A DNA stretch of 64,000 nucleotides, from IMG/VR virus record IMGVR_UViG_3300027985_001053; one strand, given 5' to 3'. The position numbers and the translations under genes are program-made. Below, piece after piece: positions 50,186 to 51,383 of the stretch (positions are counted from its first letter, which is position 1; every line of letters starts with the position of its first letter). Source of the stretch: a virus (taxonomy: Duplodnaviria; Heunggongvirae; Uroviricota; Caudoviricetes). Below the pieces are notes generated by a model. It was not told the origin of the DNA. It saw nothing but the letters and a program-made list of their open reading frames with translations, and made no database searches.

Positions 50186-50398
50186 ATGAAAACACTTGTA
50201 TTTGCAGTATACAAACTTTTAGTAAGCATTTTATTATTGTTTGGAACATGGTTTGCAATAGGTCCATGGTTATTAAATCAACAATCTAGTTTAATGTACT
50301 TATTGGGAATAATTATCAATATCTCTGTAATCATTCCTGTCGTAAAAATCCTACAAAGTGTAGGTAAAGATATAAAGAAAATAGGAGAAGAACAATGA
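50186..50398 (+). CDS. small 2-TM membrane protein
   Basis: hydrophobic; stop overlaps the next ATG (ATGA). Confidence 0.45.
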   Translation: MKTLVFAVYKLLVSILLLFGTWFAIGPWLLNQQSSLMYLLGIIINISVIIPVVKILQSVGKDIKKIGEEQ

Positions 50399-51273
50399 AA
50401 AAATTACTAATTTTACTAGTAGTTGTGTTAAGTTTTGTTTCTTGTGCGGATAGAGTTTCGCCAGGATATGTCGGTATCAGAACATACCAAAGAGGTGATA
50501 AAGCAGGTCAATCAGAAGTCTTAGGTGTAGGAAAACATTCTTTTGTATGGGCTACATCAACAGTAGTATTTCCTACTTTTAGACAAAACTATGTTTGGAC
50601 GCAAGATCCTACAGAAGGATCCAAACGAGATGAATCTATCAAGTTTGCTATAGAAGGAATGGAGATAGGTGTAGATATAGGTATAGAGTTCTCTGTTATA
50701 CCTGATTCTGTAGCAGTTGTTTATGCTGAATACCGTAAAACTCTCGATGAATTAACAGCAGGGCCTTTAAGAAATTATATTCGAGATGCTATAACGTTTG
50801 CAACTAAAGATTACAACTCTGTTGAAGAGTTTATTACAGGAAACCTATTAACAGTTATCGTATCAGATGCAGCTAAACAAGTTAAAGATCATTTTAGAAC
50901 AAAAGGTATAGATATCTCTAAAGTATATATTATTGGAAAACCACATTACCCACCTAAAATTGTTGCTGAAATTGAAAACAAAGTTATGAAGGTGCAACAA
51001 GCTGCTGCAAAAGAAAACGAGGTTAGAGAAGCCGAGGCTCAAGCAAAAATAAATGAAGCGAAAGCTACAGGAGAGGCAAGAGCTAAAGAGATTTCCGCTG
51101 AAACTAATGCAAGAATTGTAAAACTAAATGCGGATGCTGAGGCATATGCTAATGAGAAAATTAGTAGGTCATTAACACCTTTACTTCTCGAAGATAAGAA
51201 AATAAATAAGTGGAATGGTGTAGAATCTCTCTACAATGCTGACGGTTCTGGAAACATAATATCGATTAAATAA
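50395..51273 (+). CDS. SPFH/band-7 (stomatin/prohibitin-like) lipoprotein
   Basis: lipobox LSFVSC after the signal peptide; SPFH core; Ala/Glu-rich coiled coil AKENEVREAEAQAKINEAKATGEARAKEIS. Confidence 0.65.
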   Translation: MKKLLILLVVVLSFVSCADRVSPGYVGIRTYQRGDKAGQSEVLGVGKHSFVWATSTVVFPTFRQNYVWTQDPTEGSKRDESIKFAIEGMEIGVDIGIEFSVIPDSVAVVYAEYRKTLDELTAGPLRNYIRDAITFATKDYNSVEEFITGNLLTVIVSDAAKQVKDHFRTKGIDISKVYIIGKPHYPPKIVAEIENKVMKVQQAAAKENEVREAEAQAKINEAKATGEARAKEISAETNARIVKLNADAEAYANEKISRSLTPLLLEDKKINKWNGVESLYNADGSGNIISIK

Positions 51274-51303
51274 ATACTACCTTAAATATTTTATTACCAA
51301 TTA

Positions 51304-51341
51304 ACTTAAGTACGACATATTTAAAAGTGTCGTACTTAAGT
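51304..51341. terminator. bidirectional hairpin (13-bp stem cttaagtacgaca/tgtcgtacttaag)
   Basis: inverted repeat between convergent genes. Confidence 0.55.
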
Positions 51342-51342
51342 T

Positions 51343-51378
51343 ATCTATCTATCTATCTATCTATCTATCTATCTATCT
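51343..51378. repeat. (ATCT)9 tetranucleotide microsatellite
   Basis: nine perfect units. Confidence 0.9.
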
Positions 51379-51383
51379 AATGA

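Follow-up and report, generated by a model that had tools for sequence, protein, structure and literature searches.

An SPFH lipoprotein and its two-helix membrane partner: a divergent example of a widespread phage cassette, inserted in the structural module of an uncultured phage

The sequence studied here is a stretch of 64,000 nucleotides (hereafter, the window) from the virus recorded in IMG/VR as IMGVR_UViG_3300027985_001053 (Caudoviricetes). The window is part of a phage genome and is AT-rich, with a guanine plus cytosine (GC) content of 32%. In this study, we describe a cassette of two plus-strand genes, small70 and SPFH292, which encode a two-transmembrane (2-TM) protein and a lipoprotein of the SPFH superfamily, together with the hairpin and the microsatellite that lie downstream of them. 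The pair is a known and widespread phage cassette, found in hundreds of unrelated phages, and this locus is a divergent example of it. The features of the cassette are as follows.

50110..50185: divergent intergenic region of 76 bp, GC content 27.6%, which holds the Shine-Dalgarno (SD) sequence of small70
50186..50398, plus strand: small70, 70 amino acids, SD sequence AGGAGG at 50172-50177
50395..51273, plus strand: SPFH292, 292 amino acids, SD sequence GGAG at 50384-50387
51302-51318 with 51327-51343: inverted repeat with a 17-bp stem and an 8-nt loop, between the convergent genes SPFH292 (plus strand) and orf205 (minus strand)
51342..51379: non-coding tract of 38 nt, (TATC)9.5 or (ATCT)9, of period 4 and with 100% matches in Tandem Repeats Finder

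The initial annotation, made from the sequence alone, had presented the pair as two translationally coupled plus-strand genes within a minus-strand structural module. Its coordinates and description were correct except for the length of the hairpin stem, and coupling agrees with the ATGA overlap of the two genes at 50395-50398. Strong SD motifs were found in 43 of the 50 longer open reading frames (ORFs) of the window. The 76-bp spacer upstream of small70 is presumably the promoter region of the cassette. A nucleotide search of 50,697 phage records gave no match to the region, and the Rfam search of positions 49300-52100 returned no RNA family, apart from a small RNA match at chance level (E 0.13).

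The SPFH292 protein covered the whole profile of Pfam Band_7 (PF01145) with its residues 21-217 (54.6 bits for a cut-off of 23.6, E 1.9e-14), and its residues 4-287 matched PHROG 200, described as 'lipoprotein' (193 bits, E 1.7e-56). The AlphaFold2 model, built from 26 homologs and with a mean predicted local distance difference test score of 82.7, consisted of an SPFH alpha/beta domain (residues 19-184) and a helix of 73 residues (187-259), followed by a short helix and then by a disordered tail. This tail carries the family-invariant residues W273 and G275 and a conserved C-terminal KWNG motif. The SPFH/Band_7 assignment that had been proposed for the gene is therefore supported by a domain search above cut-off, with which the predicted fold agrees, and the Ala/Glu-rich coiled coil noted at the same time corresponds to the long helix of the model. 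When the full chain was compared to the PDB with Foldseek, the proteins matched were erlin1/2, PHB1/2, HflK/C, stomatin, QmcA and flotillin, with E values from 2e-11 to 1e-6. In sequence, SPFH292 was about equally distant from prohibitin, QmcA and HflK (E about 1e-7 to 1e-4), and it failed the equivalog test for hflC (TIGR01932), with 14.9 bits for a cut-off of 134.4; only sub-threshold matches to HflC and FloT were obtained in the NCBIfam scan. Given this equidistance and the score below the hflC equivalog model, SPFH292 is assigned by sequence comparison to a separate SPFH subfamily.

The N-terminus of the protein, MKKLLILLVVVLSFVSC, has a charged start, a hydrophobic core of 12 residues and a cysteine at position 17 (codon at 50443-50445), which ends the lipobox FVSC. 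It satisfies the lipobox rule of PROSITE PS51257, which we take to place the cysteine at positions 15-35, and the lipoprotein signal with lipobox described in the initial annotation was thus recovered. SPFH292 is a lipoprotein precursor, with lipidation predicted from this signal; as a lipoprotein, it would hold its SPFH domain outside the cytoplasmic membrane, in the orientation of HflK/C, prohibitin and erlin. In the enterobacterial and Burkholderia homologs, an Asp occupies position +2 after the cysteine (...GCDRVEPG in phages Pylas and phiP27, ...GCDNVP in phage Maja). In Escherichia coli, Asp at +2 after the lipidated cysteine is a Lol-avoidance signal that retains the lipoprotein in the inner membrane. 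Despite the 'SC' lipobox, the host of the window phage is probably not a member of the Bacteroidota, as weakly hinted by the strong SD motifs and the GC content of 32%. A further weak hint on the host is that the best cellular SPFH homolog belongs to a Spirochaetaceae MAG (L096).

The product of small70 was modelled by AlphaFold2 as two helices only (residues 2-30 and 35-69), and we infer a 2-TM membrane protein with both termini inside (N-in/C-in). The turn between the helices is conserved (GPWLLNQQSS...G) and predicted to be extracytoplasmic. Taken alone, small70 received no assignment in Pfam, PHROG, PADLOC or NCBIfam, and it had no match to phrog_1130 ('membrane protein') at E <= 0.01, a family that was matched by 27 of the 35 partner proteins aligned. 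Its kinship became apparent when it was compared to a profile of 32 partners from other phages, from which small70 and its two close relatives had been left out: the score was 28.1 bits (E 2.5e-10), while the best of 1000 composition-preserving shuffles reached 11.6 bits, and hhalign gave a probability of 94% for the same profile. On this evidence, small70 is placed, through profiles, in a large family of two-helix proteins that largely corresponds to PHROG 1130. The core of the family consists of a first transmembrane helix, the motif G-x3-P-x-L-[ILV]-[SN]-x2-[DS]-x3-[VL]-x2-G, a second transmembrane helix and a basic tail; P27, S31 and G41 are the most conserved residues and lie at the extracytoplasmic turn, on the side of the SPFH domain. 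At least 1027 representatives (clusters at 50% identity) were matched at E <= 1e-3 among 1.84 billion cluster representatives. Nearly all of the best 150 matches were stand-alone proteins of 55-90 amino acids, and the names given to the matches by their sources were all 'hypothetical', except for one partial record labelled as a glycosyltransferase. The family can be traced through profiles only, because tblastn searches with small70 or with the Pylas partner reached just very close relatives. Two identities tried for the partner, T4 Imm-like protein and holin, were without consistent Pfam support.

The cassette is widespread in temperate as well as virulent phages, and the SPFH gene was carried by 374 cultured-phage records and by at least 481 IMG/VR stretches. 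We examined 89 loci with SPFH homologs, 81 of them IMG/VR stretches, and found a 2-TM ORF with the common core directly 5' of the SPFH gene. In the 63 non-redundant viral loci, the partner lay directly upstream of 35 of the 39 SPFH genes of lipobox type and of 5 of the 24 others (odds ratio 33, Fisher p 4e-8); in three of these five, the lipobox seems to be narrowly missed or the start codon to be another one. Where the lipobox is absent, the SPFH protein has a transmembrane anchor ('...CFKMISPGYVG'), and several such proteins are preceded by a different, single-TM protein. Both annotated pairs and single-frame fusions of the partner to the SPFH protein were found, the latter in contigs of metagenome-assembled genomes (MAGs).

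Burkholderia phage Maja: annotated pair gp114/gp113
Klebsiella phage Pylas: annotated pair gp028 (annotated '2 TMDs N in C in') and gp029
Roseophage DSS3_MAL1: annotated pair
Phage phiP27 (L008, 2268..2456; NC_003356, ~3304..3492, complement): 62-residue 2-TM ORF with an ATGA overlap with the start of L05
Eubacteriaceae MAG contig (L097), 1794..2813: partner-SPFH fusion in a single reading frame
Bacteroidales MAG contig (L103), 1752..2819: partner-SPFH fusion in a single reading frame

The 62-residue partner ORF of phiP27 is unannotated in the RefSeq record. Both fusions keep an internal MKKL...lipobox, and the topology of such a fusion makes sense only with an N-in/C-in partner and an exported SPFH domain. 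The presence of SPFH genes in phages has been on record since 2006 (PMC1524935), and these genes are frequently counted among the morons (PMC1524935, PMC5834331, PMC10269572).

The window cassette is therefore best compared to the pairs formed by PHROG 200 and PHROG 1130 in phiP27 (L05), Pylas (gp028/gp029), the Burkholderia phages BcepF1 and Maja, Stx2 phages and DSS3_MAL1. It shares with them a 2-TM protein of 55-90 amino acids which overlaps or abuts an SPFH protein of ~280 amino acids with a lipobox and a KW(D/N)G C-terminus, and their SPFH proteins are 33-37% identical to SPFH292 over more than 90% of its length. It differs from them in several respects. SPFH292 is at most 33-44% identical to any protein of a long contig, small70 is tied to the family through profiles only, the cassette is inverted in the late structural module instead of lying in an early or accessory region, and it is accompanied by a pseudo-paralog of the terminase ATPase and by the microsatellite. 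In Pylas the pair adjoins a virion RNA polymerase subunit and a dUTPase, and in phiP27 it lies between int/xis and the early region; from the types of these phages, we take both settings to be early and non-structural. The nearest cassettes are those of two contigs, L004 (SPFH protein 73% identical) and L003 (44%), which lie in different contexts and have a homologous protein of 64-66 amino acids in the position of small70. The similarity of the window to these contigs is confined to the two cassette genes, except for a gene like orf505 located 2.5 kb downstream in L003. In L003, a phage contig of 104 kb, a tRNA-like sequence was seen by eye directly 5' of the partner gene (~9696..9770).

The surroundings of the cassette in the window, all on the minus strand, are the following.

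~31 kb to 64 kb (window end): structural and packaging block
45286..47142: tail sheath (phrog_23, E 8e-19)
49450..50109: orf219, upstream neighbour of small70
51384..52001: orf205, convergent to SPFH292
52002..54098: large terminase subunit (TerL), weak match to phrog_2699
54172..55668: major head protein (phrog_138)

Related phages were found through terminase homologs with 69-75% identity and fall into three lineages. These relatives came solely from the protein database, the single-protein pattern searches for the terminase in IMG/VR having returned nothing. In two of the lineages (L010-L013 and L014/L015), the order of genes is major head protein, TerL, orf205 homolog, orf505 homolog and sheath, and their identities to the window proteins are 73-75% for TerL, 51-54% for orf205 and 49-57% for orf505. 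The spacer between the orf205 and orf505 homologs is 26 bp in L010/L011 and 54 bp in L014/L015, as compared with 1.94 kb in the window. The additional DNA (49440..51383) comprises the repeat, the hairpin, the inverted cassette and the minus-strand gene orf219. As the two related lineages hold only 26-54 bp at this site, the insert of ~1.94 kb is, by genome comparison, a real acquisition (a 'moron') through which the cassette was gained as a unit. The moron status claimed in the initial annotation is in accordance with these adjacent genes of the relatives; the annotation would have been contradicted by an element common to all relatives, and at this site the insert was absent from them. In the third lineage (L177, terminase 69% identical), another gene, of 332 amino acids (3673..4671), separates TerL from the orf205 homolog. 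The neighbourhood of orf205 is thus prone to insertion, given that L177 bears a different insert one gene away. Just upstream of the structural module, L014 (1280..2728) and L015 (49..1497) carry a pair of the IS200/IS605 type (Y1 transposase and OrfB/TnpB).

The product of orf219 was aligned by hhalign to residues 78-298 of the TerL family with a probability of 96.4% (E 1.1e-9). In it, the Walker A motif GxGKS is replaced by GLNRCGTT, with loss of the lysine, and the invariant DSSP by EYSS. Because of the loss of both, we class orf219, from its sequence, as a degenerate terminase paralog that corresponds to the N-terminal ATPase domain of the large subunit. No homolog of orf219 was found between the orf205 and orf505 homologs of L010-L015. 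The gene could be a recombination relic from the terminase of another phage or a neofunctionalised pseudo-ATPase. Upstream of orf219, the motif CTATATAAG is similar to what precedes the orf505 homologs of the relatives. It was considered as a late promoter and dropped, because its 48 matches in the window hardly exceed the 46 expected.

In view of the above, the interpretation that we favour, with moderate confidence, is that a moron in an uncultured, AT-rich myovirus of ~130 kb brings in a two-gene membrane cassette, made of an SPFH cage and a docked partner. The 2-TM protein would be located in the cytoplasmic membrane, and the coupled, lipid-anchored SPFH protein would face the extracytoplasmic side. 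On the outer face of the cytoplasmic membrane, the SPFH lipoprotein would assemble through its long helix into a ring- or cage-shaped oligomer, like HflK/C, prohibitin and erlin, and this oligomer would enclose the 2-TM partner or dock it through the conserved extracytoplasmic turn of the latter. An insulated membrane patch would result in the infected cell. The cassette would be transcribed independently, convergent to the late operon, and its transcript would stop at the 17-bp hairpin. As for the benefit to the phage, we tentatively suggest an early protection at the level of the envelope (superinfection exclusion or membrane stabilisation) and not a control of lysogeny, a possibility in which we have rather limited confidence.

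Several points weigh against this interpretation. Oligomerisation, localisation and partner binding are predictions from the models and from analogy, and the role of the family has been called unclear (PMC13239085, PMC8540360). PADLOC gave no match for either cassette protein at E <= 0.1. In the 76-bp spacer, a scan for the sigma-70 consensus, which may not be the promoter type of the host, found no site; the terminator function of the hairpin is deduced from its fold, and a U-tract is missing. Regarding the promoter and terminator by which morons are recognised, a strong hairpin is thus present downstream, and neither a consensus promoter nor a canonical terminator was called. Nor does base composition point to a recent import, the GC content of the cassette (28-35%) being like that of the genes around it (33-36%). 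The relatives, represented by partial contigs, may carry the cassette elsewhere in their genomes. Finally, no partner was found within 2 kb of the SPFH gene in a Spirochaetaceae MAG (L096), which holds the best cellular homolog of SPFH292 (42% identical), nor in two Entomospira chromosomes or Kapaibacterium. Since these cellular homologs of lipoprotein type lack it, the partner is typical of the phage-borne form and not universal.

The closest functional model for the cassette is the HflK/HflC-FtsH complex of E. coli (7VHP, 7WI3, 9CZ2), with which SPFH292 shares an N-terminal anchor, a periplasm-facing SPFH domain and a long helix, the match extending over the whole chain. To judge from the predicted structure, SPFH292 probably works as a membrane cage, like HflK/HflC. 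It differs from them in having a lipid anchor instead of a transmembrane helix, in being encoded by a single gene and in lacking an hflC or hflK equivalog score, and its partner is a 2-TM protein of 70 amino acids and not a protease. It has been speculated along such lines in phage genome papers (PMC8540360, PMC10269572) that a phage SPFH protein might join or replace the host cage around FtsH and so alter the degradation of phage or host proteins, as HflK/C does for lambda CII, with a bias of lysogeny or a stabilisation of phage proteins as the outcome. Topology and structural similarity (E 4e-10 to 4e-6 to HflK/HflC) speak for such mimicry, which we nevertheless regard as improbable: beside the hflC score far below its cut-off, identity to HflK/C is ~15-18% and not above that to erlin or prohibitin, and the dedicated 2-TM partner is left unexplained. 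In addition, members of the family are frequent in phages that are strictly virulent, for which a role in lysogeny would make no sense. They occur in the N4-like Pylas, in the T4-like 44RR, Aeh1 and RB43 and in Vi01-like phages, and SPFH genes of virulent phages have been reported (PMC1524935, PMC3220722, PMC8540360). It is for this reason that a function in lysogeny or through FtsH was ranked below envelope protection or superinfection exclusion.

With regard to the latter, the T4 Imm and Sp superinfection exclusion proteins are, like small70, small 2-TM phage proteins of the inner membrane, a likeness that is an analogy only; the Pfam families listed for the partners do not include Imm_superinfect. 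In the Vi01-like phage PhiSH19, the SPFH gene adjoins a gene annotated for superinfection exclusion (PMC3220722). A more specific form of the cage interpretation, which we consider unlikely, is that the pair constitutes a membrane-compartment device in which the extracytoplasmic cage surrounds a tiny inner-membrane effector and gives infected cells or lysogens a defined envelope phenotype. This might be a block to DNA entry by superinfecting phages or the neutralisation of abortive-infection effectors that target the membrane. If true, the device would establish a new class of SPFH-client systems, different from both SPFH-NfeD and HflK/C-FtsH.

The partner of SPFH292 had at first been likened to NfeD, and as a statement of family membership this analogy must be abandoned: small70 has 70 amino acids and two helices, which leave no space for an OB-fold. 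NfeD (PF01957) had no match to small70, nor did it appear in the list of the 25 Pfam families most often matched by the 35 partners at E <= 1. In the SPFH-NfeD operons (E. coli QmcA-YbbJ, 8Z5G; PH1511-PH1510), as in the phage cassette, the SPFH gene is co-translated with a gene for a small membrane protein. The natural gene fusions of the phage-type cassette (L097, L103) are a further likeness, and NfeD-SPFH fusions occur as well. Unlike those operons, the phage cassette has the partner gene first, and small70 is devoid of an NfeD/OB-fold or a protease domain. In addition, QmcA is oriented towards the cytoplasm, and a lipoprotein towards the outside.

A role in the timing of lysis is less probable than HflK/C mimicry. 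The partner would then be a holin- or antiholin-like protein which the SPFH cage sequesters, delaying or sharpening permeabilisation, and both its size and its 2-TM layout are indeed those of class II holins. Weak Pfam matches to holins were obtained (Phage_holin_2 in one member, E 0.004; Holin-X in another, E 0.055), but they concern only 2 of the 35 members and not small70. In the annotated phages the pair is located in early or accessory regions and not beside endolysin or spanin genes, and in the window it lies within the packaging and tail module with no lysin nearby.

The hairpin was already part of the initial annotation, with a stem of 13 bp; the hairpin itself was verified, and the stem has 17 bp. 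It is formed by 16 Watson-Crick pairs and one G-U pair and is AT-rich, with four G-C pairs. The 131-nt stretch that contains it folded with -24 kcal/mol (z -5.75 on the plus strand and -3.67 on the minus strand), and no shuffled sequence folded as well. As no T-run follows, it was passed over in the scan for canonical intrinsic terminators. The hairpin is probably a bidirectional transcript end or a barrier.

The stem shares its final two bases with the start of the microsatellite, for which the nine perfect ATCT repeats first described were confirmed (9.5 copies). It is the sole perfect repeat with a unit of 3-6 nt and at least six copies in the window and about 95 phage loci. The tract lies between the stop codons of SPFH292 (51273, plus strand) and orf205 (TAG, 51384-51386, minus strand), and ends 4 nt from the latter. 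It is thus 3' of the hairpin on the plus strand, between the orf205 stop and the hairpin on the minus strand, and part of neither an ORF nor a promoter spacer. The notion of a slippage-prone tract is tenable in principle; a regulatory role is not supported, as the tract lies past both convergent stops. With more or fewer copies, reading frames, promoter spacing and the flanks of the hairpin would all stay as they are, and only the distance of ~41 nt between the orf205 stop and the hairpin would be altered. Perfect tetranucleotide tracts long enough to slip are shared with the contingency loci of Haemophilus and Neisseria. In those loci the tracts lie within ORFs or between the -35 and -10 boxes, unlike the tract of the window.

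Assemblies break at the tract. Two Logan contigs of run SRR7216773 (L002, which ends at ~51370, and L009, which ends at ~51350) halt ~29-31 nt into it, from opposite sides. On the assumption that Logan is a de Bruijn assembly with k = 31, these breaks fit a repeat at least as long as k and are not evidence of length heterogeneity. No second copy of the junction between hairpin and repeat was found by exact search in IMG/VR and JGI metagenome contigs. The homologous cassettes of L003 and L004 have no repeat, and that of L003 is followed by a canonical GC-rich hairpin and then a T-run. A contingency locus in which slippage of (ATCT)n toggles the cassette or the neighbouring late genes is consequently very hard to sustain, however unusual such a tract abutting a hairpin is in this data set, since between two convergent stop codons phase variation has no evident target and the contig breaks are otherwise accounted for. 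Most likely, the tract is a functionally neutral product of slippage, and its significance is chiefly practical, as a cause of breaks in short-read assemblies. Only if the pair were the membrane-compartment device considered above, which is unlikely, might the repeat, together with the hairpin, also modulate antisense transcription that reads through from the late operon.

Other repeats are present in the window. Positions 15458..15784, in an AT-rich stretch, hold five tandem units of 61 bp (or 2.6 of 122 bp) with 82-88% matches, which look like iterons, an origin or a regulatory array, and further short repeats lie beside them (15216-15336). Repeats of 60 bp (20 amino acids) of the type LDLRYTQITSLPEGLTVGG were found in plus-strand ORFs at 19796..19993, 22163..22386, 22997..23457 and 27495..28695, with 20 copies in an ORF of 573 amino acids (27444..29165); these ORFs form a paralogous family of leucine-rich-repeat-like proteins. 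In addition, a repeat of 87 bp (56290..56468; 2.1 copies, 91% matches) lies within a minus-strand ORF of 687 amino acids (55903..57966). No tRNA genes were found in the window.

Hundreds of phages have an annotated SPFH gene, among them Stx-converting phages and candidates for phage therapy, and why phages carry these genes 'remains unclear' according to a paper of 2026 (PMC13239085). The PHROGs families of the SPFH protein (200) and of most partners (1130) are already known. What is added here at the level of the family is the specific pairing of the partner with lipobox-type SPFH proteins, the fusions, the conserved extracytoplasmic turn and the Asp+2 signal, which must be taken as leads and not as a new category. 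It must be noted that the partner is often unannotated, as in phiP27. In this regard, the near-constant pairing argues for studying the two proteins co-expressed, and not the SPFH protein alone.

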